DNA of 64,000 nt, from the NCBI GenBank assembly GCA_951406725.2, contig OX597815.1:17670001-17734000 (forward strand). Direction: 5' to 3'. Each line of letters opens with the position of its first letter. Within the stretch, counting starts at the first letter, position 1. Source of the DNA: Octopus vulgaris (lineage: Eukaryota). Below are positions 5,400 to 63,241 of the stretch, piece by piece. The position numbers and the translations under genes are program-made. Under the pieces are notes generated by a model, which was not told the DNA's origin, ran no database searches, and saw only the letters and a program-made list of their open reading frames with translations.

Positions 5400-5600
5400 A
5401 GGTGGTGAGCTGGCAGAAATGTTAGCATGCTGGGCGAAATGCTTAGCAGTATTTCATCTGTCTTTACATTCTGAGTTCAAATTCCGCAGAGGTCAACTTT
5501 GCCGTTCATCCTTTCGGGGGTCGATAAATTAAGAACCAGTTGCATACTGGGGCCGATCTAATCAACTGCCTAGTAAAGCCTTGTGCTTAGTGTAGAAAAG
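5400..5600 (+). mobile_element. SINE family B (CpG-decayed copy)
   Basis: GGTGGTGAGCTGGCAGAAATGTTAGC...GAGTTCAAATTCC...CATCCTTTCGGGGGTCGATAAATTAAG; homologous to the copies at 41532, 52965 and 57750. Confidence 0.85.
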
Positions 5601-6290: not shown

Positions 6291-7855
6291 TCAACAAAAT
6301 ATCAATACCATTCCACTTTATCAATTCAGCGACCCACAATTTCATGGTAGGGAAACCTTCAGATAGTTGTTGCTGTTTAATCTCAAGTCAGCCTTGACAG
6401 AGTGTGCTTTAGATTAAAAGTTGCTACAATTATGAACATCGGTCTTTATATTTTAATATTGTATACTAAAGTCTACATTATCCAATGTATCCAACCTTAA
6501 TATGATATGATGTGGTACGAGGAAGATTTGGTTGCAAATCAAGAAACACCTATCTTTATTTAGAGCTTTAGTCGAGAGAGGAATGGCAGTATCTATGACT
6601 CTTTGCAGGATCTCTGAGACTTGTAGTAGAGACGTTATTCTGAAACTGGAGACTTAGCTTGGTTGCTTGCAACAGAGTGACATCACTAAAGGTAGCCAAA
6701 GGTCAGAGAGGGCTGTGCAACCAGATGGTGTATTAAAAGCAATAAGAGGCTTTTCTCTTTAGTTTGTTTATAGATTGTGTTACTAAGAAGTGGAAAAATG
6801 AATAACTTCATGACAATAGAAAATATCTAATCCTAAGTTTCACATTAGCATCTTTTAAGACAAAAAAGAAAAAAGAACTTGTTTAAGAAATAGTTTTCGC
6901 TAATGAAGAACACTTTATTTATAGCAGTCTTAAATAACATCCACACAAAATGGTTAATATTGAATGGCAATACACTAAAAGCATTTCTGAGTGTTGATAT
7001 TGTTCTCAACATATTTGAAAATAAATTCTGGAAGTTCCAGAATACATCATCATCATCATCATTATCAGTATCACCATCATCATCATCATAGATGGAAATT
7101 CTATAGCACCAACACAAATGGCAATAAAATTTTATTTTGTTGTAAGCAAATAACAAATATCTATTTTGTAACCATATATGTTTTATAAACAAGGAAGACA
7201 GTTTTTATTCCAGAAGAAAAAAAATAGAGAGAGAGAGAGAGAAAAGAAAGAAAAAGAAATATGGTATTGTAAGTAAACAGTAAGAAGAGTCGTTTGACAT
7301 TCAAGAGAAAGTCTTATGTAATAGAAATGGTATGTTAATAGTATCAAAGTTAAATCATCATATATTTTGTTAGTTTCTAACATAAAATGTGTTGTCCAGA
7401 GTTTTGCTTAATAACAATAATTTTTTTTTTTTTTCTCCAATTTGCTATTTACTATTTGGTTTGAGTCCAATTTCACTTAAGTCATTAATAATATCTAACA
7501 TTTATATTTCTTGATGTACCATATTTTTGTGACAAAAACATCTGCAAATGAAGCTGCTGTTTTATCTCTGAAATGTTGGAACAGGTTGAAACAAGTGTGA
7601 ACAATGATTAATTATGTAATACACCATACAGTAAATGACATTACCAATTTAGCAGGAACAAACATACTTAGTCTAAATTGGCAGTGAAAACTGTCTTGGG
7701 TGAAAAGCCTAACTTTTTTGAGAACACATCTTCAACCGTTGTGATTTTGGTTCTTACTTAGAAACTAACTCCTAAGACCTTTCATTGGTATACTACAAGC
7801 ACTTTTATCTAATTGTGTATGCCTTATATACATTCAATGATGTACAAAAAGTGCT

Positions 7856-8310
7856 TTTTTTTTCTTTCTAGTTTTAGCTCAGAGCTGTGGCCATGCTGAA
7901 GCACCGCCGTTTTGTGCTACACTGTTATTACTAAGACCCTCCTCTAATATGTGGCACTTGGTGAAGAATGGAATTTGATATAGTTACTCTCATTTCCACC
8001 TCTTGCCGTGAGGTAGTTTTCAACTGGGACTCTCGACAGGAAGAGGTCCAGCTTTGCTTTAAAAAACCCTACATCTACTTTGTGCAAATTCCTCAGACTC
8101 TTTGGGAGAATATCAAAAAGCTGTGGGCCCTTGAAACCCAGGCTGCTGCAGTAACTGGTCCTGAAGCGTGATGGTATTGCTGGGATCTTTGGCACTATGC
8201 AGTGTCGACCCGTTCTGGCATTGGTGTAGTTTTCAATGCCAAAATTTGGCACAATTCCTTCCAGGATCTTCCAGATATATATTACTGCATACCTGTCCCA
8301 TCTTCTCTCC
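7856..8310 (-). mobile_element. 3' end of a CR1/L2/Jockey-group LINE (ORF2 C-terminus plus 3' UTR)
   Basis: SLERRWDRYAVIYIWKILEG...GPQLFDILPKSLRN...FKAKLDLFL is a typical ORF2 C-terminus. The 3' end reads GGCGGTGCTTCAGCATGGCCACAGCTCTGAGCTAAAAC followed by an A-rich tail. Confidence 0.85.
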
Positions 8311-8624
8311 AAAGACAAAATGTTTTTGCAAAGACAAAATGGAACCAAAATTAATTATATCGCACAAAGCACGACATAGGTATAAATAAATAATTTTGTT
8401 CAAAAACATAATTTGTTGACCAAATTATTAATTGAAACATTATTCTTATTCGAAACCATTTTGTTTACCTGGCTAGGTATACAAAGTTACACTGAAGTAT
8501 TTGATATGATAAAACTCTTTTGGTGAGAAATGTATAAAATTATAGTCAGAAGGACTAAAATAATTTAAATGTAACCATTGGTGTAGTTAATAGTTAAGTT
8601 GAAGTCCATACATGTCCATAGGTG

Positions 8625-8948
8625 CAGGAAGTGTCTTCTACAATAGCCTCGGGCCGACCAAAGCCTTGTGAGTGGATTTGGTAGACGGAAACTGAAAGAA
8701 GCCTGTCGTATATATGTATATATATATATGCGTGTGTGTGTTTGTATGTCTGTGTTTGTCCCCCTAGCATTGCTTGACAACCGATGCTGGTGTGTTTATG
8801 TCCCCGTTTCTTAGCGGTTTGGCAAAAAGAGACCGATAGAATAAATACTGGGCTTATACAAAGAATAAGTCCCGGGTCGATTTGCTCGACTAAAGGTGGT
8901 GCTCCAGCATGGCCACAGTCAAATGACTGAAACAAGTAAAAGAGTAAA
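8625..8948 (+). mobile_element. SINE family A, 5'-truncated
   Basis: AAGTGTCTTCTAC..GGGCCGACCAAAGCCTTGTGAGTGG...GCTCCAGCATGGCCACAGTCAAATGACTGAAACAAGTAAAAGAG. Confidence 0.9.
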
Positions 8949-10104
8949 ATAGTAGTACATGTGGTTATACATTTGTCCACATGATATCACAGTAAACTTA
9001 AAAGTGATTTAAGACCAACCAAAGAAGTTTTGGTGGTTGAATTTACTTTAAATTTCTAAATTAAACACAAGAACATTCTTTTCAAACCAGACTTTCAATT
9101 TACTATTTGATAGTAGTTTTCAAAATTTTTAGTTTTTGCCAAGATTTAGTTGAAAATTGTAATTGTTCTGATGAATATAATACCCAACTGCAACTGTACA
9201 CCTGCTGACATTTACTTCTGAGACAAAAAAGAAGCTTAATTTTTAAGTAATCCCTTCCTTAGAGAATTTCTAAAATTAACAAACACTAATGAAAAAGGAA
9301 AGAAGAGAAAGAAAATTCAAGAATTTCTTCAAGAATTTCCTCCAAAGAAATGGCTTTAATCTGCAATAAGGCATTTGATCAAAGTTGCTAATAGTGTTGG
9401 ATATGCAGAAATGCTGATGAGATTCAAATATTACAGAGTAAAACATCAGTGCATTATTTAACCTCTAAATATAAAAGAAACAGACAAGTCTTTCAGAAAA
9501 GTAGTTTGTTAATAAATGTATAAAAAAAAAAAAAAGAGTTCTTAGAATAAAAAACAAAAAAAATCTCTTTTTAACTAGATTATTAATTAAAGAATGAATC
9601 TTCCTAGAAATCAATTACTTTAGTTTGAGAAGTATACAAAGTTAGATTGAAATATCAAAAGTAGTAAAATAGAACTTACACATAGATGGGATTGAAAATT
9701 GAAGTTGATTTACAACAGGCCATTGTTGATTTTCTTTTTTTGTTTTTTGAGCCTAAATCAACAATAAATGTAGGTTCCGATACGAAAATAAAATATCAGT
9801 ATTTCACGCTTCAGTAGAGTTTTGATTAATTGGTGAGTTCGTTTCCAAGAAAATAACAGAAGATAATTTCACTGAATGAAAAATCCGAAGTATCATTTCC
9901 CCCCCATTAAAACACACAAAGTGTGTAACTCCTATGTAAGAATGCAGAAAGTGTCAACTCCGAGTATGAAGACATCCTGAGAGCTTTCATTAAGAAAGTG
10001 GTTTTTCAAATATGTGATAAAGGGAAAGTTATTAAGAATCTGTATTGAGAAGTACTACAAGGAACTGATCCGTTCACAGCAGCTAAAGTTGACGCCATTC
10101 ATAC

Positions 10105-10460
10105 CTTGCTGTCCCTTAATTTTCACTGTCATGTTTCTTTCATTTCATCAAACAAATTATTCGCCGTCCATGAAACACAACTTCAGGCATTTACCAAACG
10201 GACTCAAATTGCGGATCTTTGGTAAGAGGAAGCCATTCCCCTGAAGTGCACGATATTTTAAAAACTGGCTTTGTTGTCACTTTTTTACCTCTTTTGGTCA
10301 AGCTTTCTTCTATTTAGGAGTTGTAATCTAATCATGGATACTGGAAATGAATGCTACTCCAGTTAAGGAACTTCTGCAAAAGCGTCCGTTCAAGCTGTTA
10401 ACACTAATAATTTGATAAAAACCGGCTGGAGGAAAACGCTCACGGCGCCCTCCACCGTAT
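10105..10460 (-). CDS. Candidate exon: 5' UTR with several uORFs plus a putative start codon (CDS 10132-10105, MTVKIKGQQ, phase-1 donor)
   Basis: Acceptor GTTTTGTTTCTAG|A at 10461, donor CAG CAAG|GTATGA at 10105. Non-repetitive and CpG-retaining inside a CpG-depleted region. AAAC-ATG context. The protein is not identifiable. Confidence 0.45.
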
Positions 10461-10877
10461 CTAGAAACAAAACACCAACGAAAATTTCGACCCGTAAAGA
10501 ATAAATACTAGATAACTAAATAAAGTAGGCTGGTGTTCTTTATCAATGACTTACACTCTAAATGAAAATAGTTTCAATATCTTAGACAAGAGCATTTCAC
10601 AAAATTAAGCTGATTCATCATTACAAACGTATAGAGATATAGTTTTATTTCCTAACATCAGTGGAATTTAACAACCATTCAAAACCTAAAAGTTCATTAT
10701 GTTTCTTAATGAACGATGATGATTATTATTGCTGTGGTTCTTGCAATAAATATACCACCTCCACTACACCACTTATTTTGCTCCCAATCAGAATTTGATT
10801 TTAACATAACTTACTTTCAAGAACTAAACCCTGCTCCATTGACATAGCATTACATTAAACGCTACACAATACATATT

Positions 10878-11290
10878 CTCTACTCTTTTACCTGTTTCAG
10901 TCATTTGACTGCGGCCATGCTGGAGCACTGCCTTTTAGTCGAGTAAATCGACCCCAGGACTTATTCTTTGTAAGCCTAGTACTTATTCTATCAGTCTCTT
11001 TTACCGAGCCACTAAGTTACGGGGACGTAAACTCACCACCGTCAGGTGTCAAGCAATGGTGGGGGGACAAACATAGACACACAAACATATACACACATAC
11101 ACATATATATATATATACATATATACGATGGGCTTCTTCCAGTTTCCGTCTACCAAATCCACTCACAAGGCTTTGGTCGGCCCGAAGCTATAGTAGAAGA
11201 CACTTGCCCTAGGCGCCACGCAGTGGGAATGAACCCGGAACCATGTGGTTGGTAAGCAAGCTACTTACCACACAGCCACTCCTACACCTA
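10878..11290 (-). mobile_element. SINE family A, full length (tRNA-derived head)
   Basis: Head AGGAGTGGCTGTGTGGTAAG...GGTTCATTCCC (A/B boxes), internal (TA) tract, family tail. Confidence 0.9.
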
Positions 11291-11914
11291 TCTAATAATT
11301 CTAACATGCCTTTCCTCGCCATTATGACTCATTGAGATTTCTTTTGGAACATAGATTCCTCACCTTCAGTTCCTCTTCTACCAGTCTCTACCAGGTGATT
11401 CTCCGGCATCCTACCCTCCTTATTTCCTCTGGTGTCTAATTGAAAGTATACCTCAGTAATCCCCTCTCTCTCTCTCATCTTCTTGACATATGATCTACTC
11501 AGCTCCATTTTTGTCTCACCACTTGTTGGTTGGTGAGTTGCCATGTGGTTTGGCAAAGAGGTCTTTGTTGCTCACAATTTCTGGATAACTAATGTCAACA
11601 GAGATTTGATGTCACCATTGGAAAATTCTCTGCTTAACATGCTGAGATATACTATGCTTCTTAAATATATAAAATATTTCAATTTGCTTGACCATAACAG
11701 AGTTGAGGTCCTTGCTTTGAATTTTCATAGTCTTTGCATAGCATGTAAAAAGCACCAACCGATCGTTTTTTTCTATGTTAGCATGAGTTAGATAAGTATA
11801 TTATTTAGGTATTGCTCTGCAACTGGGTCCCATTCCTAGCACAAACCCTAACCTGTTTTTCAAGTGAGGAACCTCTTATTTCACATATCTTCAAAGGTAC
11901 AAAGTCAATGGTTG

Positions 11915-12110
11915 ATTGCCGGTGGCACGTAAAAAGCATCCATTACACTCATGGAGTGGTTGGCGTTAGGAAGGGCATCCAGTTGTAGAAACACTGCCAG
12001 ATCAGACTGGAGCCTGGTGCAGCCTTCTGGCTTCCCAGACTCCGGTCGAACGGTCCAACCCATGCTAGCATGGAGAACGGATGTTAAGCGATGATGATGA
12101 TGATGATGAT
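11915..12110 (+). mobile_element. Family C retroposon 3' end
   Basis: GCCGGTGGCACGTAAAAAGCA...AGGAAGGGCATCCAG...CATGCTAGCATGG...(GAT)n. Confidence 0.85.
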
Positions 12111-12380
12111 TTTCCAGTACAGTGAAAGCAGATTGCGGGATAAGGGAAACAGGTTTTTAAGTAAACTCAAAGTTTATAATAAAACAAAATAAATACCAGT
12201 TTAATTCTGATAATAGCAATAAAAATATATTCTCTAAATCAGGGTGTTTTAAAAACAGTTGTGTTGTCAATTTTAGAAGCTACTAATATTAACTTTTTGT
12301 TAATATTAATTTTAAATTATCTGCACTTGTTACCAAGCCAAGCATATACCAATTAATTAATTTTAATCATTACAGGTTAA

Positions 12381-12680
12381 TTCTGTTGTGTCTGGGGAGA
12401 GTCATTTTCTTTGTGTGCCTTGTAGTGTAACACACTCACCGGTAAAATTTTCACTTTTTTTTTTATTTTTATTTCCCTAAAATTTTTGTTGCGTCTTGCA
12501 ACCTTTTCAATAGTTTTGACTAGGAAAATAAAAATAATAAAAAAGTGGAAATTTTACTGGTGAGTGTGTTACACTATAAGGCTCAAAAAGAGAATGACTC
12601 TCCCCAGACACAACAGAATATGCTTCAACACACGAACTCATATAAAGAATCTTGCAAACCAAATCCAAAAACGAAATATT
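12381..12680. mobile_element. Family 5 hammerhead-like element folded as an inverted repeat (arms 12381-12479 and 12521-12618)
   Basis: TCTGGGGAGAGTCATTTTC...CACACTCACCGGTAAAATTT. Further copies at 19415-19605, 22080-22202 and 56112-56212. The motif at 12477-12513 on the minus strand has G12>A. Confidence 0.75.
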
Positions 12681-12709
12681 ACAGGTTAAATTTTAATATA
12701 ACTCCATTA

Positions 12710-12910
12710 GGTGGTGAGCTGGTAGAACTGTTACTGCATCGAGCAAAATGCTTAGAGGCATTTTGTCTGTCTTTACATTCTGAGTTCAAATTCTGCTAAG
12801 GTTGACTTTACCTTTCATCCTTTCAGGGGTGATAAAATAAGCACCACTTGACTACTGGGGGGGTCAATCTAATTGACTTACCCCCTTCCCCCAAATTGCT
12901 GGGCTTGTGC
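12710..12910 (+). mobile_element. SINE family B (decayed)
   Basis: GGTGGTGAGCTGGTAG...GAGTTCAAATTCTG...CTTTCATCCTTTCAGGGG. Confidence 0.8.
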
Positions 12911-14139
12911 ATGCTTTACTTTGATAATTGATCAAACAACATTCAACTATGTTTCCTTAAAGGTTTTCGGATTATTCAGTATTTTATACTTCAGTGATAA
13001 GCTACAGTTTCTTTACCAAAAATTCCACATTCTGACAAACCAAAAGAACAAAGGAAATTTGTATATGGCATTTGTTGGTTTTAACACAGGGGCAACTATG
13101 TGGTTAAGATGTTTGCTTTACAGCCCCAAGGTTTCAGGCTTAGTCCCACTGCACAACACCTTGGGCTGTAGTCTTCTACTATAGGCCTGAAATGACTAAA
13201 ACCTAGTAAGTGGATTTCGTAAGAAGCTTGGAATCTGTGTGCTTGCTTATGTTTGTACTTCTCTGAAAGTCATTGAGCTACAAGTGGTGACATTGTGGTC
13301 TCTTGTCAACAATCAACCATTGACTTTGTGCCGTTGAAGACACGTGGAATAAGAGGTTCCTTACTTGAAAAACAGGCTAGGGTTTGTGCTAGGAATGGGA
13401 TCCAGTTGCAGAGCAATACCTAAATAATATACTTATCTAACTCATGCTAACATAGAAAAAAACAAATGTAAAAAGTAAAAAAAAATGAATGAATAGTTAG
13501 TCTGAAGGAGAGTGTCCCATGTTAATTAAAATGGTTGTTGTTATCAAGTTAATTATGAAATATGAATATTGATTGTTTGGCAAAGGAACAAGACATCTTT
13601 GAAGTTTTGTACTAATGTGATAAACAGCTAATCCAGACCAGAGAGACAGCAAAGTTAAAAATTCATTGACTCCTAAAAATGAAGTGGCGGTGGGTGGGTG
13701 GTGGAGGTTGAATTCATACAACAAAGACTCCTACCATAATTATTCAACTAGATTATCACATCTCTTGTTTTCCGTTTCACTTGTCCTGTTCTCTTTAATT
13801 CCCCCAACTGACTTCGGTCCTGCCAGGCCGATTGTGTCAACAAGATAGCAAGCCAGTAAATTAGAACGAGTTATTAAATAAATATTATGAAAGATTTAAT
13901 GAAGAAAGGTTATTAAACAGTGTTTTTCAAAAACTGGCTCAATGTTGAGCAGCAACTAATAGCAAACACTAATATTTGAGAACAGTGATAAGATCACAGT
14001 TGGCAGTTTGCAATTTCCTTTGCGGTGAACTGGAAGTAAAATAGCAGCAAAACTAAAACATCTAATGGACCTTGAAATTAGCACTAACGAAATCTTGTCT
14101 GGCATTTTTAATTCTATCTGTATCTTTTATATCAATACA

Positions 14140-14625
14140 TAGAGCGGCTAACTGGCTTCTGTGCCAGTGGCACTTAAAAGGCACTATTTGAGCATGATTG
14201 TTACCAGCATCGCCTTACTGGCACTTGTTCCCATGCTAGTAGGGTGCCAAGAGCACCATCCGAGTGTGATCGTTGTCAGAGCAACCAACTGGCTTCCGTA
14301 GTCAACTAGTACTAGTAAAAGGGCACCATTCAAGCGTGATCGTTACCAACGTCGCTTCACTGGCACCTATGCCAGTGGCATGTGTAAAAAGATTCAAAGC
14401 GAGGTCGTTACCAGTACAGCCTGACTGGCCCCCCCGTGCCGGTGGCACATAAAAAGCACCCACTACACTCTCGGAGTGGTTGGCATTAGGAAGGGCATCC
14501 AGCTGTAGAAACTCTGCCAGATCAAGATTGGAGCCTGGTGCAGCCATCTCGTTCACCAGCCCTCAGTCAAAATCGTCCAACCCATGCTAGTGTGGAAAGC
14601 AGACGTTAAACGATGATGATGATGA
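14140..14625 (+). mobile_element. Family C retroposon with tandem subrepeats
   Basis: Repeated GCCAGTGGCAC/GTTACCAG units, then the family tail GACGTTAAAC(GAT)n. Confidence 0.85.
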
Positions 14626-15913
14626 CATACTATATTATCATGAGTTACATAGTAGCATCCCCAACTGGATGAAGTTGCTGGTTGATTTAAATGAGAATTG
14701 AACATATAACTAAGTCTCCATCTCTGCTGCAACATCTTTTTTTATTAAGTTGAACTCTGAAATTTCTAAGTCAACTGCCATAATATTCTTTAATAAATAT
14801 CATTGCTAATAAAAGTATTCTGACCAATTAAATATTCCTGTCTTATTGATATCAAAATATTTCTTCTAGTCATAAAGATGTGCAAGATTCCACATAGCTG
14901 TAGATTGTTTGGCCTGATTTTTATTATGGAATAGATTGCTTATGCCAGCCTTCACATTAAATTGCCATTCAAGAATTTGGACCTGGAGATCTCCATTTCC
15001 AGCGACTTCGAGGGTCACCTCCCAGTGGTGTCGGGCGTCAACGAAGAGCCCTTGACTACAAGACCAAAATTTTTCTTTTTCACCCCCAAGGTCTGGGGTC
15101 TCCTGCCCCTAAGCCCAAGACCATCACCTAATCACCCTTACCCGTCTTGTTGCGTAACAACAACAACAATCACATTAAATTCATAATGAAAAGTAGGGCT
15201 TGTCTCAAACTGAAAAGTTAAGCAACACAATTTGGGGTCACTGGGCAGAAGTTGAGTGACTGGCACAAATTTTCATTGCTTTCTTCAGGTCAGCTGAACA
15301 CATGACTATAACACAATCAGCTAGGTAAATACTTATCAGTTACATAGTGCTCCCACTCTTGACACTAAACAGCTGTATTAATTGTATCTATTTACAACTT
15401 GCTTAACTGAGTTAACAAGAGTATTTAAAATGAATATCACTGATTTGATGTGCATTTTAAACTTCATTTTACTGCTATGGGTTCTATAGGTTGGGAAACT
15501 GTCTTCCTATCTTCATCTGTTGTTCATCTTATTCAATTACTGTCAGTCTAAATTCTTGGGTGAAGTAATATCAACTTGTCTCTCTCTCTAACAAATCAAG
15601 GTTTATAAGTTAAATGTAATGGTGCAGTGATTAAAGTGTTAGGGTACAGGCCAACCTGACATATATACAACAGTTTCTTCTCTGGAGAAGAAAGGAAGTA
15701 CCCTTGGCCTTTGTAGGGCTAACTAGTCTATAGCTGAGCAGCTAGTTGTAGGAAAGGCACCAAACCTGTGAACACACATCATTCTAGCCAAGATGGTATG
15801 GAAAATATGTTGTAAAAAAAACAGGCGAAGAAAAAAACATATATACATATAATGTATATATTATGGCCATATCTCATAGAAAACACTGGTTCTTGTCTGA
15901 TTACCAAAGTTAA

Positions 15914-16498
15914 CCCTTTCGTTACCAACCCAGCTGAAACTGGCTCTGGCTCTTTAGTATAAACTAGCACTCTGACCCGGCGTTGCTGGGTCATAGTGCT
16001 AGTGCATGCATATACAGCTGCGTGCATGCACACTTACACACGAGTACTGTCCAAATCTCTGACCAATCACATACAGCTAGCTGGCATTCAATTAGCGTAT
16101 CAAGTTTCAGGCATTTTGATTGGGTTTTGGATAGAAAATTCACAAAAAAGTCACTCCTACTGATTTTTTAATGGCTTTGCAGGGTGACTGGGGAAATGTA
16201 AAGATGTGCACGACCACCCTTGGATGGTATTGAATGACCATAGAAAGCGCAAGCCCTCTAACTGAAAAATTGTGGATTTGTATAAAGGACACGCACACAG
16301 GCATTTTGCCATTTATATATAGAGAGATGTCTTGTTTTGATAAGTTTTGAATTCAAATCTTCCACCAAACCTTAGTCACAATTTATGTTCCTAACACTAA
16401 CTCAATGATAATGATGTTATTTTACTAAATTCTTGGTTATATTTAAAATAATTGAAAGAAACACAGAGCATCTCAAAATAAATACAGTAACAAAAGGG
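15914..16498. mobile_element. piggyBac-type MITE
   Basis: TTAA TSD at 15910-15913 and 16499-16502; termini CCCTTTCGTTAC / GTAACAAAAGGG. Confidence 0.85.
15964..16327 (-). mobile_element. Non-autonomous Helitron nested in the piggyBac MITE
   Basis: Minus strand 5' TCTCTCTATATATAAA, 3' hairpin GACCCAGCAACGCCGGGTC ending CTAG; inserted at A|T with no TSD. Confidence 0.8.
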
Positions 16499-17433
16499 TT
16501 AAGCAACATTGAGCCTAGTTAGTACTTAGATGGGTGACTGCTTGGGTGCTATAAACATCTGTAATTCCTCAGTAGCAGTGCTCCAGCATGGCCACAGCCT
16601 TAGAGCTGAAACATGTAAAAGAACAAAAGAATATATATATGTAAATGAGGACTCTCGTGATTTTATAGTAATAATCAGATGGCAGTTACATATTTTCCAG
16701 GACAGGAAGTTACTTTGTCATTGGTTGCATTCTTTGGTGATCGGTCACTACTAATAATCAACAAAGTAAGTTTTAGTAGCAACACTAAGTGCCTCACTTT
16801 TTCTATTGTTACACTCATTGTTCATTGTCCAGTCAGTTCTGGTGTAGATGACCTTCACAGTATTAAATAGCCGAGGTGTCAGTGTACTAAAAATAGTATG
16901 GACTTTTATCAGGTTTTTTTATAATAACTTAACTAAACAATATTCATTAGTTTTCCTTTCATTTGCTGAACATATTAATCTTAAAATCAACAGAGCATCT
17001 TCATAAAATTACAAGCATTATAAATAAATTTTCAAAGTTCTTATAAATAGTTTCATTTCAAATTGGTGTTATTATTTTTATTATATAATCTATCTAAAAC
17101 AGTATGTACTATTACAGTAAGAATAATAGTACTAGTCAATGAATATACTTCTGATTCTTCAAACCAACTAACAAACAATTAAACTAATTTGAAGAGTAAT
17201 TTCTCAATAATTAACATGCGATAGAATAGCCAACTTGACCATTTAGTATACACATACAGAGAGCATGTCTCGTGTAACGCTAACATAAGGAAACTCTTTT
17301 ACTTCTTTGTTATCTGAAAATTCTGTCATTTCCTTGTGATTAATTAAAAAGATATCTAATATTATGAAAGTAAAATGAATAAATAAGAAGATCTGATGTA
17401 AGGAAAATAATCTTTTATAATTCATTAAAGTTT

Positions 17434-19414: not shown

Positions 19415-19418
<4 letters not shown>

Positions 19419-19605
19419 TGTTATGTCTGGGGAGAGTCATTTTCTTTTTGTGCCTTATAATGTAACACACACACACCGGTAAAATTTCCACTTATTTCTT
19501 ATTTTTATTTTCCTAAAATTTTCATTGCGACTTGCAACCTTTCCAATAGTCTTGACATGAACTCATATAAAGAATCTTGCAAACCAAATCCAAAAACGAA
19601 ATATA
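19415..19605 (-). mobile_element. Family 5 element with hammerhead-like motif (19513-19549)
   Basis: CTA-TTGGAAA-G GTTGC AAGTC GCAAT-GAAA-AT-TT-TAG, then a ~95-nt tail into (TA)n; (TA)n on both sides. Confidence 0.65.
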
Positions 19606-22024: not shown

Positions 22025-22081
<57 letters not shown>

Positions 22082-22227
22082 CTGGGGAGAGTCATTTTCT
22101 TTTTGTGCCTTATAATGCAACACACTCATCGGTAAAATTTCCACTTTTTCTGTGACATTAAAAGGCTCAAAAAGAAAATGACTCTTCCCCAGACAACAGA
22201 ATATTTTTCGTACTATAATAGTTCCCC

Positions 22228-31102: not shown

Positions 31103-31463
31103 ATCCAAACAAGAAAGCACAAAAAAACACAACAACGCGAGGACGTGGAACAAATATAGTATTATTGGACGCTCAGGAAAGAAGGAGGGTTTAACGTTTC
31201 GAGCGGAGCTCTTCGTCGGAAACATAGGAGAAGGAAAGATCCAGAGAAGACAGAGGAAAAAAAATCGACAACGGTACACACGAGGTCACATTTTTGTATA
31301 TATATATACGACGGGCTTCTTTCAGTTTCCGTCTACCAAATCCACTCAGAAAGCTTTGGTTGGCCCGAGGCTATAGTAGAAGACACTTGCCCAAGGTGCC
31401 ACGCAGTGGGACTGAACCCGGAACCATGTGGTTGGTAAGCAAGCTACTTACCACACAGCCACT
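30850..31463 (-). mobile_element. SINE family A interrupted in its internal (TA)n by a hammerhead element (31098-31292)
   Basis: Tail at 30850-31060 and head at 31300-31463 are collinear with uninterrupted copies. Confidence 0.9.
31189..31223 (-). ncRNA. Minimal hammerhead-like motif, family 3
   Basis: GTTT-CCGACGA-A GAGC TCC GCTC-GAAA-CG-TT-AAAC with palindromic stem III (AACGTT). Confidence 0.6.
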
Positions 31464-32935: not shown

Positions 32936-33604
32936 CCCTTTAGTGTTTAAACCGGCCGTATCTGGCCCAAATATTCTAAATGTTTTATATTCAAACTGGT
33001 GATATCTAGCCTCTCACACCTAACCTACAATGTCATGCTAAAAATAAACAATCACATCACTGAAACCTCAAAGCTATAAGATAATGCATGATTAATTCAA
33101 AACAATTTGAGTGAAAAAGTATTATATTTAACACATGGCACAGGAGTGGCTGTGTGGTAAGTAGCTTGTTTACCAACCACACGGTTCCGGGTTCAGTCCC
33201 ACTGCGTGGCACCTTGGGCAAGTGTCTTCTACTATAGCCTCGGGCCGACCAAAGCCTTGTGAGTGGATTTGGTAGACGGAAACTGAAAGAAGCCCGTCGT
33301 ATATATGTATATATATGTGTATATATATATCTGTGTGTGTGTGTGTGCGTATATGTTTGTATGTCTGTGTTTGTCCCTCCCAACATCGCTTGACAACCGA
33401 TGCTGGTGTGTTTATGTCCCCGTTACTTAGCGGTTCGGCAAAAAGAGACCGATACAATAAGTACTGGGCTTATTACAAAACGAATAAGTCCCGGGGTCGA
33501 GTTGCTCGATTGACTAAAGGTGGTGCTCCAGCATGGCCGCAGTCAAATGACTGAAACAAGTAAAAGAATAGAAGAAAAAAAGAGAGTAATCTGAACACTA
33601 AAGA
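32936..33604. mobile_element. piggyBac-type MITE containing a SINE A insertion
   Basis: Termini CCCTTTAGTGTTT / GAACACTAAAGAG-TTAA; the left TTAA is not intact. Confidence 0.6.
33136..33572 (+). mobile_element. SINE family A, full length
   Basis: GGCACAGGAGTGGCTGTGTGGTAAG...GGTTCAGTCCC...TGACTGAAACAAGTAAAAGA. Confidence 0.92.
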
Positions 33605-36555: not shown

Positions 36556-37059
36556 AAAAGATAAATAGCCTGAGGACGCACTGGTGGATTTATGTATTAG
36601 GTATAGCCTCTATAAACTCTCCACCAGCGTAGAAACACGTGTAGCGTTGATTAAAATATCTTTTTTCCCCCACAGACTAATAACAGGTAAGTTATAAATT
36701 TCTTCAATTTTTTTTTTTCAAATAATTTTATTGTATTTTATAGCATGCTTATATTAATTTATTGGATATAACTTTCTTTGTAGTTCTGCAATATGGAAAA
36801 CGAGTTTTGGTCATCGAAAATAGAGTCTGACGAATGTAAATTCTGTCTATTTTCCAATTCCAGGCAGAAGGACATTTATCGGTAAGTAAAGATGGTACAC
36901 AGCTACTGAAGAGGCCAAAAAGCTTTGAAACATGGCCAGCTTTTCTCCCTTTCGAGTCAGCACACATAGTCATCAGAAGAATAGTTTACAATCGTGGTAA
37001 GCTTTAAAACTAACAGACATGTTTTACACACACACACACACATATGTGTGTGTATGTGT

Positions 37060-38444: not shown

Positions 38445-39601
38445 AAATGCGAGCAAGAGAAATAATATTCTTGAGATTATAAACCTGGAAAAGTTCAGGA
38501 CAAGTTATTACATCTGGTAAAGTACAAAACAAGAAAAAATTTTATTTAAAATATTGCAGCTAAGGATATAATTTCAAATAAATATATTTAGATTTAGAAA
38601 ATATTAATTTTCATGAAAACTAAAAATTTTATTACAAGTTATTACTTCTATTTGTTATTACTTGTTACTTCTATTAAAAATTAAAAATAACGCAAAATAT
38701 ATTTTGCACTTTAAAAGAATTCATTGTTTTAATTATTAATTGATGATTCGAATTTTGAAAATAGGCCATAAAAAATAATAGTAGTACGTAATTAGTACGA
38801 TAAATAGATTAATATAAAAATTAGTTATATTGCTAACCAACCACATGGTTCCGAGTTCAGTCCCACTGCGTGGCATCTTGGGCAAGTGTCTTCTGCTATA
38901 GCCCCGGGCCGACCAATGCCTTGTGAGTGGATTTGGTAGACGGAAACTGAAAGAAGCCCGTCGTATATATGTGTATTTATATGTTTGTGTGTCTGTGTTT
39001 GTCTCTCTAGCATTGCTTTACAACTGATGCTGGTGTGTTTACGTCCCCGTTACTTAGCGGTTCGGCAAAAAGAGACCGATAGAATAAGTACTGGGCTTAC
39101 AAAGAATAAGTCCCGGGGTCGATTTGCTCGTCTAAAGGTGGTGCTCTAGCATGGCCGCAGTCAAATGACTGAAACAAGTAAAAGAGTAATTACAGTAAAT
39201 CTACCAGTAACAACAGATTCACTGTAAAATTTGCTTGAGTTATCGCCTAAGCTATTGCCAAGTCTTCACATTTTCAGTCTTGACCTAATGCCTATTTTTT
39301 ACATAATGAATTTGCCTACCATATATACTATGCTACTTTGCATTAAACTTCAGCTATATTGGTACTTCTGGCTCTCATTTTTTAAGTATTCTAGTGTGTC
39401 AATATTTTAACAAAATGATGGTACCGTTTTTAATTATATTGTTACTTTGTAAATTAAAATCAAATAATTTTTAATATTCAAATTTTATCCTTAACTGCAA
39501 TATTTTAAGTAAAAGTTTTCTTGTTCTGTACTTTACCAGATGTAATAAGTTGTCCTAAACTTTTCCAAGTTAAGAATATTATTGATCTTGCTCGCATTTT
39601 T
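38445..39601. repeat. Inverted ~130-bp arms (38445-38575 and 39481-39601) around a SINE
   Basis: AAAAATGCGAGCAAGA...TTATTACATCTGGTAAAGTACA matches the reverse complement of TGTACTTTACCAGATGTAATAA...TCTTGCTCGCATTTTT. Confidence 0.75.
38830..39188 (+). mobile_element. SINE family A
   Basis: Family consensus from the B box to the tail. Confidence 0.9.
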
Positions 39602-41531: not shown

Positions 41532-41765
41532 AGGCGGCGAGCTGGCAGAAACGTTTGCACGCCGGGCGAAATGCGTAGCCGTATTTCGTCTGTCGTTACG
41601 CTTGTGAGTTCAAATTCCGCCGAGGTCGACTTTGCCTTTCATCCTTTCGGGGTCGATAAATTAAGTACCAGTTACGCACTGGGGTCGATGGAATCGACTT
41701 AATCCCTTTGTCTGTCCTTGTTTTTTCCCATCTATGTTTAGCCCCTTGTGGGTAATAAATAAATA
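41532..41765 (+). mobile_element. SINE family B, CpG-intact
   Basis: GGCGGCGAGCTGGCAGAAACG...GTCGACTTTGCCTTTCATCCTTTCGGGGTCGATAAATTAAGTACC. Confidence 0.92.
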
Positions 41766-43899: not shown

Positions 43900-44985
43900 A
43901 TCCTTTTAAAGTCAAGTTTTGTGGTATTATGGTCCATTCAAGTAATGAGTTCTTGTTGAGTCAGTTGTATTCAGGCACGTGTGGCTTGTCTGGTATTCCT
44001 TGTAGAAATCTGTCCAGACTCTGTTTGAAGGTGATGGGATCCTTTTCCTCTTTGATCAGTTTTGGAACAATGTTAAACAGGGTAGGGCCTGTTGAGGTAA
44101 AGAAATTGTGCCGCAGTGTTCCTATATGTTGTGATCCTGAAATGGGTAGGGGACGTGTGGCCCGTGGTCCCAACCTTGGGTGAACGTGGAAGCTAATGTT
44201 CAGGTCGTTTGGGCAATGCTGGCGGTATATTCTCCACATCGTGCAAATGATGTACCGCTCGTGGCGGTGCTGGAGAGAGTAGAGTTTCAAGGCTTTAAGG
44301 CGGTCCCAAAAATCGAGATCAGTCATGCCCTTAATTCGCTTAGTGAATGCCCTCTGGAGTGATTATCGAGATGTTTTGTTTTGTATGGAGAAACCACAGG
44401 TTGCATCATTATTTGAGGTGTGGCCGTACAAAGGAGGAGAAATGTGAAATGGTGACACCTTGTTTTCACGACAGGGAGGTTCTTAAGATCCAGGAGCTCA
44501 TCCTACGAGCTATATCGACCTTATTGTTGATGTGGGCACTCCAACCGAGATAGTTCTCAACAATTAATCCTAGGTCTCTGATATTATTAGATGCTGTGAG
44601 CGGTTCCCCTGAAGGAAGAGAATACAGCTGTTTTAGTATAGTCTTCCTTCCAAAATGTATCAGCTCAAATTTTCACTTTGCAGTGTTTTACGACGCTGGA
44701 AAGGTCGTTTATGTAGATTATAAAGAAGAGCGAGCTCAAGACAGTCCCCTGAGGGACACCACTGGTGACTTTTGCTGGGCTTGAGTACACTCCATCGACA
44801 AAATGATGTGTTCTATTCGCCAGGGAATATTCAATCGGGTGTAGATGTTTTCCACAGATTTCAACATATGCCAATTTTGGGAGTAAGATATTATGGTCAA
44901 CACTGTCGAACGCTTTACTGAAGCGATATATGACATCAGATTTCGAACTTGTTCCTGAGGCTTTAAGTATTTCCTCAATGTGGTG
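43900..44985 (-). mobile_element. CR1/Jockey-group LINE ORF2 remnant (RT core plus C-terminus)
   Basis: [31 protein letters not shown], then LDFWDRLKALKLYSLQHRHERY...GPTLFNIVP...FKQSLDRFL; internal deletion and frameshifts. Confidence 0.92.
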
Positions 44986-46692: not shown

Positions 46693-46727
46693 ATTTCCGA
46701 CGAAGAGATCCGCTCGAAACGTTAAAT
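46693..46727 (+). ncRNA. Minimal hammerhead-like motif, family 3 (element ~46680-46820 ending in (TA)n)
   Basis: ATTT-CCGACGA-A GAG ATCCG CTC-GAAA-CG-TT-AAAT; the tail is shared with 31098-31188 and 38341-38425. Confidence 0.6.
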
Positions 46728-48313: not shown

Positions 48314-48710
48314 TAGGAGTGGCTGTGTGGTAAGTAGCTTGCTTACCAACCACATAGTTCCGGGTTCAGTACCACTGCGTGACACCTTGGGCAAGTGTCT
48401 TCTGCTATAGCCTCGGGCCGACCAAAGCCTTGTGAGTGGATTTGGTAGACGGAAATTGAAAGAAGCCCGTCGTATATATGTATATATATGTATGTGTGTG
48501 TATATGTTTGTGTGTCTGTTCCCCCCCCCCCAACATCGCTTGACAACCGATGCTGGTGTGTTTACGTTCCGTAACTTAGCAGTTCGGCAAAAGAGACCGA
48601 TAGAATAAGTACTAGGCTTACAAAGAATAAGTCCTGGGGTCGATTTGCTCGACTAAAGGCGGTGCTCCAGCATGGCCACAGTCAAATGACTGAAACAAGT
48701 AAAAGAGTAA
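48314..48710 (+). mobile_element. SINE family A
   Basis: Full family consensus. Confidence 0.92.
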
Positions 48711-50194: not shown

Positions 50195-50230
50195 CTTTCT
50201 GTAGAAGAGCGTAGGCTCGAAACGTAAAAG
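50195..50230 (+). ncRNA. Minimal hammerhead-like motif, family 4 (CUGUAGA core)
   Basis: CTTT-CTGTAGA-A GAGC GTAG GCTC-GAAA-CG-TA-AAAG, then a ~90-nt tail to (TA)n; the tail recurs at 62812-62875. Confidence 0.6.
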
Positions 50231-52709: not shown

Positions 52710-53195
52710 ACTAAATGATATTGGTTTCAAATTCTGGCACAAGACCAGCAAGTTCAGGAGGAGGGGTAAGTCAGTTACACCAACCCCAGGGCTCAATTGG
52801 TACCTATTTTATCAACCCTGAAAGGGATGAAAGGCAAAGTCGACTTCAGCGGAATTTGAACACACAACGCAGAGACGGACGAAATGCCGCAGAGCATTTT
52901 GACCGGCGTGCTAACGATTCTGTCAGCTCGGCGCCTTCGTTCGATACTATAATAATATAGCAAGGGGGCGGCGAGCTGGCAGAAACGTTAGCGCGCCGGG
53001 CGAAATGCTTAGCGGTATTTCGTCTGTCGTTACGTTCTGAGTTCAAATTTCGCCGAGGTCGACTTTGCCTTTCATCCTTTCGGGGCCAATAAATTAAGTA
53101 CCAGTTACGCACTGGGTCGATGTAATCGACTTAATCCGTTTGTCTGTCCTTGTTTGTCCTCTCTATGTTTAGCCCCTTTGGGTAGTAAAGAAATA
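52710..53195. mobile_element. Two head-to-head SINE B copies (52710-52937 minus; 52965-53195 plus)
   Basis: GATGAAAGGCAAAGTCGAC...GCTAACGATTCTGTCAGCTCG followed by GGCGGCGAGCTGGCAGAAACG. Confidence 0.88.
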
Positions 53196-54016: not shown

Positions 54017-54046
54017 GTTTTCGTTTTCCACTTGAAGGTAGTTGTT

Positions 54047-54270
54047 CGAGCTGGCAGAAACGTTAGCACGCCGGGCGAAATGCTTAGCAGTATTTCGTCT
54101 GCGTTACGTTGTGAGTTCAAATTCCGCCGAGGTCGACTTTGCCTTTTCTTCCTTTCGGGGTCGATTAAATAAGTACCAGTTACGCACTGGGGTCGATGTA
54201 ATCGACTTAATACCTATGTCTGTCCTTGTTTGTCCTCTCTGTGTTTAGCCCCTTGTGGGTAATAAAGAAA
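54047..54270 (+). mobile_element. SINE family B
   Basis: Family consensus. Confidence 0.9.
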
Positions 54271-55876: not shown

Positions 55877-56168
55877 TTAGTAAAAAAAAAATTACTTCTT
55901 TCTAAATTATAAAGGAGTGTAGATACGATCAAGCGAATCTATTGAGTTTAATTGCAACTTAGCTTTTCAACAACCTTTGACAACGGCGTGTATTCAAATC
56001 TGTTATTGACCTAAGTAACAACAAAGTACAGTCGATTTCGCTTACTTTCGTACCCTATAATTGCATATTTCGCTAATTTGCATAACTTTTCAAAACACCG
56101 AACCTTTTAGCATTATAATGTAACACACTCACCGGTAAAATTTCCACTTATTTCTTATTTTTATTTTC

Positions 56169-56205
56169 CTAAAATTTTCATTACGTCTTTCAACCTTTTC
56201 AATAG
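56169..56205 (-). ncRNA. Hammerhead-like motif with U3-A8 covariant core, family 5
   Basis: CTA-TTGAAAA-G GTTG AAAGACG TAAT-GAAA-AT-TT-TAG with palindromic AAAATTTT stem III. Confidence 0.5.
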
Positions 56206-57379
56206 TCTTGACTCTTTTAGCATTAGCTCTCCGGAAAAATCAACCGATGAAAGTGTTCGCACAAATAAAGTCAACTGTGGCTAATTGTACCCTGTATTCT
56301 TCAAGTTGTAGTTTTAAATTGAAAGATCTCCTAAATTTAGATATTTACTTGATTTGATATGACACGGGATGCTTCAGTATTCATAATGAATTAGAATGAA
56401 AGCAACCAGTATTGCACTTTTATATATGAAAGACGATAAAACGGCTTATTGTATTTAAGTACCATTTTTATGAGTCAAAGACTGATGGAGCTCAGACGTC
56501 GGTGTATATATATCGTATTTACATTGCATGATAAAAATATTCTTTAATAGATATATATTTTCATCATAGATAAAATTTGTAAAATTGTAGTTTTTAATCA
56601 AGAAGTGGACGGACGCCATTTTGTTGCTACTGTTATCAGTAACATTCGCTTAGGATTGATCCAATAAAACCTTTCTTAACCTTCATGATTCTAGTTATTA
56701 TAAGTGAGTAATAGAAAATGTTTAGAAGCCACTGACGGGTTTTTCAGGAAGCCTGAATCTAGATAAACTTTGATAATCGAAGAATATCAAAGGGAGCTAC
56801 AAAACCTAGTAAGAAGTCAAACGATTGCGTTGCCAATACGTATCATTAAAAAAATGGTTTGAACTAAGCAAATCATAGTAAATTATGTGTACATAAAACA
56901 TACAATAAATATATAAAAAAATTTAATTCTTGTTTAATTACACAGCGCAATCATTTATAATACAGCCACAATATTTTACTACAGACATTTATTGCTTTTT
57001 GAGTGATTTCGGATAATTGTATAAGAATGTTAATCATCGAAGATATGCAATTAAGCGGACTCAACTGTGTATAATTCGACAAGTTACTATTTGCGCTAAA
57101 TATAAAACTATAAAAACTTATTGAACAATTTCTTCTACCCCAAAAGTTTGTCTCTTTGGGGATGATAGTTGGCTAACAAAACGCCCCAGATAATAAGTGT
57201 TTTCCTTACACATACGCATCCGTACACACAGCATCTTGTCATAAGATCGTAAGAGTGAAATATGATACTGTTGGAATTGTCAACAACTTTACTTTAAATA
57301 TTTCACCTTTAGGGTGTTTGCTATTTAGACTTGAAGATTTTCTTATCCTAAACAATAAACTAAACAACGTGTGGGTGCG

Positions 57380-57749: not shown

Positions 57750-57980
57750 GGGCGGCGAGCTGGCAGAATCGTTAGCACGCCGGGCAAAATGCTTAGAGGT
57801 ATTTTGTCTGCCGTTACATCCCGAGTTCAAATTCCGCCGAGGTCGACTTTGCCTTTCATCCTTTCGGGGTGGATTAAATAAGTACCAGTTACGCACTGGG
57901 GTCGATATAATCGACTTAATCCGTTTTTCTGTCCTTGTTTGTCCTCTCTGTGTTTAGCCCCTTGTGGGTAGTAAAGAAAT
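57750..57980 (+). mobile_element. SINE family B
   Basis: Family consensus. Confidence 0.92.
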
Positions 57981-61814: not shown

Positions 61815-62207
61815 GTAGGCGCAGGAGTGGCTGTGCGGTAAGTAGCTTGCTTACCAACCACATGGTTCCGGGTTCAAGTCCCACTGCGTGGCACCTTGGG
61901 CGAGTGTCTTCTACTATAGCCTCGGGTCGACCAAAGCCTTGTGAATGGATTTAGTAGACGGACACTGAAAGAAGCCCGTCGTATATATGTATATATATAT
62001 ATGTGTGTGTTTGGGTTTGTCCCCCCAACAACGCTTGACAACCGATGCTGGTGTGTTTACGTCCCCGTAACCTAGCGGTTCGTCAAAAGAGACCGATAGA
62101 ATAAAGTACTAAGCTTACAAAAAATAAGTCCTGGGGTCGATTTGCTCGACTAAAGGCGGTGCTCCAGCATGGCCACAGTCAAATGACTGAAACAAGAAAA
62201 CGAGTAA
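61815..62207 (+). mobile_element. SINE family A, full length
   Basis: GTAGGCGCAGGAGTGGCTGTGCGGTAAG... through the family tail. Confidence 0.92.
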
Positions 62208-62928: not shown

Positions 62929-63241
62929 ATTATATAGAAGGAGCTTCTACAGGACTAGAACTGTTTCATTCAAGAGAAATCTTCAGGAAGCTAGTTAACA
63001 AGAATTGTATTGGCATTTATACATTTAGGCAGGTTTAAAGGGTGTTATATATATTTTTATTTTTTAATTTTTTATTTATTCTTCTAGCTAATTTAACACT
63101 GACTCCTTGACCACTCCCCCAAGTATGATATTTTGCGCTATGCCTACCCCCCAAAAGTCCCCCACCAACACCCCTTTAAACCTGCCTAAATGTTGAGTAC
63201 CTTATTTACTGTGGTTAACCCCGAATCAACCCGGGACCTAC
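62925..63241. mobile_element. Family 1 element, rearranged, with hammerhead motif at 62942-62992 (minus)
   Basis: AGCTTC-CTGAAGA-TTTC TCTT GAAT-GAAA-CAG TTCTAGTC CTG-TA-GAAGCT; internal inverted pair at 63021-63046 and 63167-63193; (TA)n on both sides. Confidence 0.75.

Follow-up and report, generated by a model that had tools for sequence, protein, structure and literature searches.

Natural hammerhead ribozymes covary from C3-G8 to U3-A8, and earlier in vitro activity of this variant has been cited (Perreault 2011, PMC3088659). The U3-A8 variant has been described in the Cercyon PLE of Schistosoma mansoni, together with about 1,300 further matches (Cervera and De la Pena 2014, PMC4209133), and the supplement of the same paper lists the core UUGAAAA in S. 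mansoni(4), while S. mansoni(3) represents another family with U3-A8. Minimal hammerheads are typically characterized by an extra base, a G10.1-C11.1 pair and a 15.2-16.2 palindrome (PMC4209133). At their 5' end, PLE insertions bear truncated copies in inverted orientation; they have a one-sided tail and use microsatellites as targets (10.1101/2021.04.23.441226). In vitro, the Poseidon element of Anolis carolinensis uses two internal start sites of reverse transcription (RT), which define the tail (Frangieh et al. 2024, PMC11167929). For cephalopods, the giant squid genome paper reports 235 Rfam hammerhead-1 loci and, in the part that reports them, mentions no core variants.

The motif considered here occurs in three copies, A, B, and C, in a 64-kb stretch of Octopus vulgaris DNA, the whole of which is called the window in what follows (Table 1). 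Our reading is that these copies are U3-A8 minimal hammerheads in very abundant, 5'-truncated remains, likely of a PLE (a probability of roughly 0.8), which would consist of terminal repeat and ORF-start tail; in the parent element the motif would have cleaved slowly after UUU. The initial annotation had described a hammerhead core with U3-A8 covariation; the motif does have the anatomy of a PLE-type minimal hammerhead, and U3-A8 appears to be the form of the family. The novelty that the annotation implied is not supported, since U3-A8 was published in 2011-2014, and since U3-A8, UUGAAAA, and AAUU/U17 are each already in print (PMC3088659, PMC4209133). The three were not found combined among the listed rows of the PMC4209133 supplement, and no published description of the repeat family was found in a search that included cephalopod reports, with subscription journals, Repbase, and Dfam lying outside it. 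One more family is thereby added to a known U3-A8 subtype, which matters little as it stands; the family does confirm that searches for CUGANGA alone undercount PLE hammerheads.

Table 1. Positions of the hammerhead-like motifs, of the surrounding elements, and of the candidate ORF start in the window.
Feature	Position	Strand	Remarks
Hammerhead-like motif, copy C	56169..56205	minus	37 nt; stem I CUA/UAG; core U3-U4-G5-A6-A7-A8-A9; extra G; G12-A13-A14; stem III AAUU; U17; stem II damaged (A10.5, U11.4, U11.1)
Predicted cut, copy C	between 56172 and 56171		
Element, copy C	56116..56213	minus	98-nt stub, single orientation; start AGTCAAG 8 nt before stem I
Target-site duplication, copy C, upstream side	56214..56225		12 bp
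Target-site duplication, copy C, downstream side	56104..56115		12 bp; first 3 letters match element too
Hammerhead-like motif, copy A	12477..12513	minus	37 nt; U3-A8 core; 5-bp stem II intact with G10.1-C11.1; G12>A
Predicted cut, copy A	between 12480 and 12479		
Forward unit, copy A	12381..12521	minus	motif and downstream sequence to short 3' end, about +98 from predicted cut
Inverted arm, copy A	12521..12677	plus	157 nt, to long 3' end 59 nt past short end
Target-site duplications, copy A	12678..12689 and 12369..12380		12 bp
Candidate ORF start, copy A	12594..12677	plus	ATG and 27 stop-free codons to element edge; ATG at +74 from predicted cut
Hammerhead-like motif, copy B	19513..19549	minus	37 nt; U3-A8 core; A6>G; C11.1>U
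Predicted cut, copy B	between 19516 and 19515		
Forward unit, copy B	19418..19556	minus	inserted in (TA)n tract
Inverted arm, copy B	19555..19604	plus	last ~48 nt of long 3' end only
Copy D	22077..22204		two arms, head-to-head, with junction at 22151; each truncated downstream of motif; without core

The motif is present, with the same length, at each of the three minus-strand sites claimed for it (12477, 19513, and 56169), and any two copies differ at 4 of 37 positions. U3 and A8 are found together in all three, as the claim of a joint change C3>U and G8>A had it, and all three also have a single unpaired G between 9 and 10.1 and the A15.2-U16.2 palindrome, with no monomeric stem III. The private mutations ascribed to each copy are likewise there: A12 in A, G6 and U11.1 in B, and U11.1, U11.4, and A10.5 in C; the C11.1-G12 CpG is gone from every copy. 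In register, the min-HHR core N3-U4-G5-A6-N7-N8-A9 / G12-A13-A14-A15.1 / U16.1-H17 is perfect in C and has one mismatch each in A and B. The proposed consensus, with TTGAAAA and GAAA both intact, is accordingly realized only at 56169, because 19513 has G6 and 12477 has A12. The spacing had been equated with that of families 3 and 4. Measured against the motifs of C3-G8 type at 31190, 46694, and 50196, this is correct for the core but not for stem II and its loop, which measure 5 bp and 5 nt here versus 4 bp and 3-4 nt there, and the total length is 37 nt versus 33-34 nt. Stem III had been given as the palindrome AAAATTTT, of which only AAUU (15.1-16.1) qualifies; the outer letters are A13, A14, U17, and U1.1, and these lie outside stem III.

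A descriptor of the motif was built post hoc, after the motif was known. It consists of a 3-bp stem I, UUGANAA, one extra base, a stem II of at least 4 bp, GAAA, a complementary 15.2/16.2 pair, and UH, and it does not demand the G10.1-C11.1 pair. With a perfect core its sole match in the window is 56169-56205; with one core mismatch allowed, it matches exactly 12477, 19513, and 56169; and with one core and one stem mismatch there is a fourth, unrelated AT-rich match at 17023. In 298 local dinucleotide shuffles, the mean number of matches per window is 0.007 for a perfect core with one stem mismatch allowed and 0.027 for one core mismatch, and the excess over these values counts as one unlikely event, since the three copies belong to one family. 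Pattern scans of DNA gave no match in metagenome contigs and none in viral contigs, while the single match in genome contigs (L001) has no similarity outside the 22-mer and was rejected as chance. No hammerhead is found among the 150 of 314 Rfam matches listed for the whole window, which are nearly all miRNA models on microsatellites, and a separate Rfam scan of 56100-56260 gave no hammerhead match. These blanks carry no information, since Rfam also overlooks the control of C3-G8 type at 50196.

Words from the repeat are present in 24 public runs, 12 of which contain at least half of the words sampled, and the letters of the family were read from the contigs of four runs (four organism codes), aligned to copy B as reference. 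From 7,335 to 16,783 contigs per run match copy B. By these counts the repeat family is very abundant in the four runs; depth gives no copy number. At position 3, U makes up 95-98% of the depth and C only 2-5%; at position 6, A makes up 70-82%; at position 12, A makes up 3-6%. At position 11.1, C makes up 70-84% of the depth, so that G10.1-C11.1 closes stem II and the ambiguous GCAAY of the proposed consensus becomes GCAAC. The majority letters of the four runs thus give A6 and G12, and one contig joint shows the intact TTGAAAAG core directly. Since U3 and A8 stand in all three window copies, since U3 dominates the contigs, and since A6 and G10.1-C11.1 are the majority letters, U3-A8 appears from these sequences to be the form of the family and not a result of decay; pure decay from C3-G8 was rejected on the family-wide majority letters.

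Inside the motif, the contig table of the four runs lists variants at positions 3, 6, 11.1, and 12 only. That position 8 has no alternative letter is not in itself proof of A8, because the table is biased: it is equally blank at 19530, where two of the three window copies differ from B. Listed variants affect 4 of 37 positions in the motif versus 22 of 71 just downstream, in a contig set that is biased by the private changes of copy B. No compensatory stem changes were found among the family contigs of the four runs, in which there is little unbiased variation.

The repeat family has four loci in the window, A, B, C, and D, and in three of them (A, B, and D) a 5'-truncated copy adjoins an inverted 5'-truncated copy. 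In copy A, with a total of 297 nt, the inverted arm stands head-to-head with the motif-bearing forward unit. The duplications that flank A and C are AT-rich and differ in sequence from each other, and copy D sits between (TA)n tracts. Relative to the predicted cut, the starts of the inverted arms are +1 (A), about +110 (B), and about +47 (D), while the 3' ends lie near +98 or at +157, with the exception of C, which ends near +56. In A and B there is an extension at one end only, and its length is 59 nt, compared with 30-40 nt in published PLEs. In each of the four runs the long 3' end is found again at 19602-19605, bordered by dissimilar flanks, and no head-to-tail tandem monomers of the repeat occur in the window, where the copies are dispersed. 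The truncated head-to-head arms, the variable 5' ends, the one-sidedness of the extension, though not its length, and the AT-rich or (TA)n targets together argue for a PLE origin of the family, which on this sequence anatomy we regard as probable.

In A, B, and C alike, the forward unit retains an uncut motif and begins at most one base from AGTCAAG, 8 nt before stem I. The regions of these starts are 56206-56213, 12514-12521, and 19550-19556, and a start at AGTCAAG is seen also in one contig joint. It is possible that AGTCAAG marks a fixed 5' end of the RNA, a splice acceptor, or an RT stop. PLE terminal repeats are known to contain introns. In A and C a hexamer that resembles a splice donor, GTGAGT, lies between motif and ATG (in C at 56129-56134 on the minus strand, about +39 from the predicted cut).

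The candidate ORF start of copy A is short, and an open frame of 28 codons has a probability of 0.13-0.23 to arise by chance. A 31-aa frame had no match among 1.84 billion representatives, and the candidate frame with a 41-aa extension had no protein match, where queries of 31-41 aa are weak; nor does the candidate ORF start have an Atlas match. None of 148 window frames (144 of the 222 complex frames of at least 55 aa, and 4 chosen by hand) matches an RT or endonuclease Pfam family, and the only one with any Pfam match has a sub-threshold, D27-like one. Two frames, 7944-8354 (-) and 43961-44960 (-), look like the 3' portion of a LINE-type reverse transcriptase ORF; they have no Pfam match at E 0.01 and are not linked to the motif. 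Since no RT or GIY-YIG gene linked to the repeat was found, its membership among the PLEs is founded on anatomy and not on a gene.

For copies A and B the minimum-energy fold consists of stem I and stem II, and the stem II pair probabilities are 0.94-1.0; in copy C they are at most 0.02. According to the folding model, the copy at 56169, to which attention had been drawn, is probably inert, with a stem II that no longer folds. All three window copies, having lost the C11.1-G12 CpG, have decayed since insertion and are probably inert. At +2.2 kcal/mol, the AAUU duplex is less stable than ACGU (-1.7 kcal/mol) by about 4 kcal/mol, and dimers of A and C also fold into an 8-bp A-U duplex, a competing misfold. 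In a read-through transcript of copy A, the same model has the inverted arm pairing with the 3' side of stem I. Across the motif, contig depth declines smoothly in the four runs, with no step at the predicted cut. In a pairwise mutagenesis of one hammerhead, only the swap to G3-C8 rescued activity and U3-A8 did not (PMC9901934), from which follows that a U3-A8 pair alone does not assure activity.

These observations bear on three other ways to account for the motif. When copy A is folded as a whole it forms a long hairpin, each arm of which measures about 98 nt, as might be expected if the repeat were a non-autonomous hairpin DNA transposon (MITE-like) or some other repeat, and if the hammerhead shape in its spacer were a coincidence of AT-rich sequence. 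The A+T content of the motif (70-73%), the lack of a Rfam hammerhead match, and the failure to find an element protein are in line with such a coincidence, although the Rfam blank says nothing, since the control at 50196 was missed too. The inverted repeats, however, are not terminal, their junctions differ between A, B, and D, copy C has no inverted arm, the two duplications are unlike in sequence, and a fit to the descriptor is rare in shuffles. With neither fixed terminal inverted repeats nor a fixed internal structure, the MITE or class II hairpin element was rejected, and we judge a coincidence of this kind to be improbable. Slightly more improbable still is that the hammerhead belongs to a non-autonomous retroelement, retrozyme- or SINE-like, which lacks an ORF and is moved in trans by a PLE protein. 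The putative ORF start has no protein homologue, as this would have it, and animal retrozymes have been described as non-autonomous PLE sequences (10.64898/2026.07.22.740005), but head-to-tail tandem monomers are missing from the window, the form is minimal, with a stem I of 3 bp versus the canonical 6 bp, and the one-sided tail and head-to-head arms suggest direct PLE stubs. A canonical type I hammerhead or non-LTR retrozyme is ruled out by the 3-bp stem I and by the dispersed, non-tandem copies.

When a PLE origin is taken as given, the motif may still be a mere passenger, i.e., a PLE hammerhead by descent whose U3-A8/AAUU/UUU form was dead or of negligible activity even in the parent. All three forward units keep the motif uncut, depth has no step at the predicted cut and ends do not pile up there among the rows listed, stem III is weak, and U3-A8 gave no rescue in the one mutagenesis study (PMC9901934), all of which is as expected for a passenger. 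In addition, the anole element inserts in vitro without cleavage, and no RNA reads begin or end at the site in the experiments described (PMC11167929). On the other hand, positions 3 and 8 have both changed and yet still pair, G10.1-C11.1 has been retained, U3-A8 ribozymes have been cited as active in vitro (PMC3088659), and the inverted arm of copy A begins at the predicted cut. Conditional on PLE origin, we therefore consider real, if slow, cleavage in the parent element to be fairly likely, and a dead passenger to be the lesser chance, albeit one of some weight.

For the preferred reading, slow cleavage in a parent PLE, the following scheme is consistent with what is observed directly, i.e., the sequence, the majority letters of the family, the truncated head-to-head junctions, and the 12-bp duplications. 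The parent RNA would carry the motif in its terminal repeat, and two motif copies would pair via AAUU to form stem III, with U3-A8 standing in for C3-G8 in the core. The RNA would be cut after UUU, slowly and likely with the help of a protein, as for other PLE motifs. The element protein would nick AT-rich DNA, and reverse transcription would be primed at either of two positions inside the element, which lie at about +98 and +157 relative to the predicted cut. If priming often occurred on both strands, and reverse transcription stopped early, head-to-head stubs would result, and the RNA template would mostly still have borne an uncut motif.

Copy A may be a special case in this respect. Its inverted arm opens with the base that directly follows the predicted cut, and 1-2 letters are common across the junction, which places the end of the arm 0-2 nt from the cut. 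By position alone, such a coincidence has a probability of roughly 2%, but a template switch could have been directed to this point by the letters in common. The arm starts at the predicted cut in one of three loci with inverted arms, those of B and D starting elsewhere, and there is no enrichment of 5' ends at the cut (19515) among the joints (15 of 73) and loose ends (24 of 815) listed. That the inverted arm of copy A is cDNA of a hammerhead-cut RNA, joined head-to-head to cDNA from an RNA left uncut, with its start at AGTCAAG, is on this junction sequence a doubtful proposition. If it were true, and if such junctions were enriched genome-wide, sequence by itself would prove germ-line cutting by a minimal hammerhead of the U3-A8, AAUU-dimer type. 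It would also mean that cut RNA serves as template, which was not seen in the only PLE system examined in vitro. The family would then matter more, since its thousands of dated insertions could address from genome sequence whether, and to what end, PLE hammerheads cut in vivo (PMC4209133, PMC11167929).

Other hammerhead-like motifs and repeats occur in the window. One further minimal-hammerhead family has copies at 31190-31222 (-) and 46694-46726 (+), both with C at position 4 (CCGACGA) and both running 3' into (TA)n; here, too, U4C may be the form of the family rather than decay. A third minimal-hammerhead family, at 50196-50229 (+), has C3-G8, A6>U, and A17, runs 3' into (TA)n, and is missed by Rfam. 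A repeat with CTGAAGA and GAAA in hammerhead-like spacing occurs as a head-to-head pair at 865-917 and as a single copy at 62964-62986, and may represent yet another family that carries hammerheads, arranged in inverted fashion. At 36906-36976, CTGAAGA...GAAA on the plus strand overlaps CTGATGA...GAAA on the minus strand within 70 nt, possibly as decayed hammerheads. There are also two dispersed families of SINE-like repeats (D19, D20), one at 8551-8755, 33142-33346, 38806-39010, 48315-48519, and 61824-62028, and the other at 5400-5550, 12709-12859, 41533-41683, 52966-53116, 54041-54191, and 57750-57900.

Compared with known systems, the family resembles Poseidon in that a hammerhead lies near the ORF start (a candidate one here), in its AT-rich targets, and in the two RT start sites and the extension on both strands that are proposed here (PMC11167929). 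The core of Poseidon, in contrast, is C3-G8 and not U3-A8, its tail has 30-40 nt versus 59 nt here, and its ORF starts within stem II, whereas the candidate ORF here starts 74 nt past the predicted cut. Activity and its dependence on protein have been demonstrated for Poseidon (PMC11167929), while for the present motif both are predictions. The examples of Perreault (2011) share U3-A8 with the motif; the passages that present them are not about PLE-type minimal motifs, and the comparison concerns the core only. Stem II, GUUGC/GCAAC, at 19524-19538 (-) and 12488-12502 (-), has the same letters as in Drosophila Penelope hammerheads (PMC4209133), and this match may be due to chance. The PLE hammerhead of Crassostrea gigas has, like the motif here, a 3-bp stem I, a 5-bp stem II, a 5-nt loop, AAUU, and a UUU site, but it differs in its canonical C3-G8, its extra base A, and its unrelated stem letters (PMC4209133). 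The extra base is H in the published consensus and G in one listed row of the PMC4209133 supplement, as it is here. In the S. mansoni Cercyon PLE, the extra base is A and stem III is ACGU, compared with G and AAUU here, stem II and its loop are longer, the host is different, and the hammerheads are linked to a PLE ORF, whereas the present family is placed by its anatomy. The Cercyon hammerheads are nevertheless, like the copies described here, mostly dispersed single truncated copies, and they too include opposite-strand pairs. Closest in form is S. mansoni(4), which shares with the present motif the core UUGAAAA, a 3-bp stem I, one extra base, a G-C pair that closes stem II, and U17.
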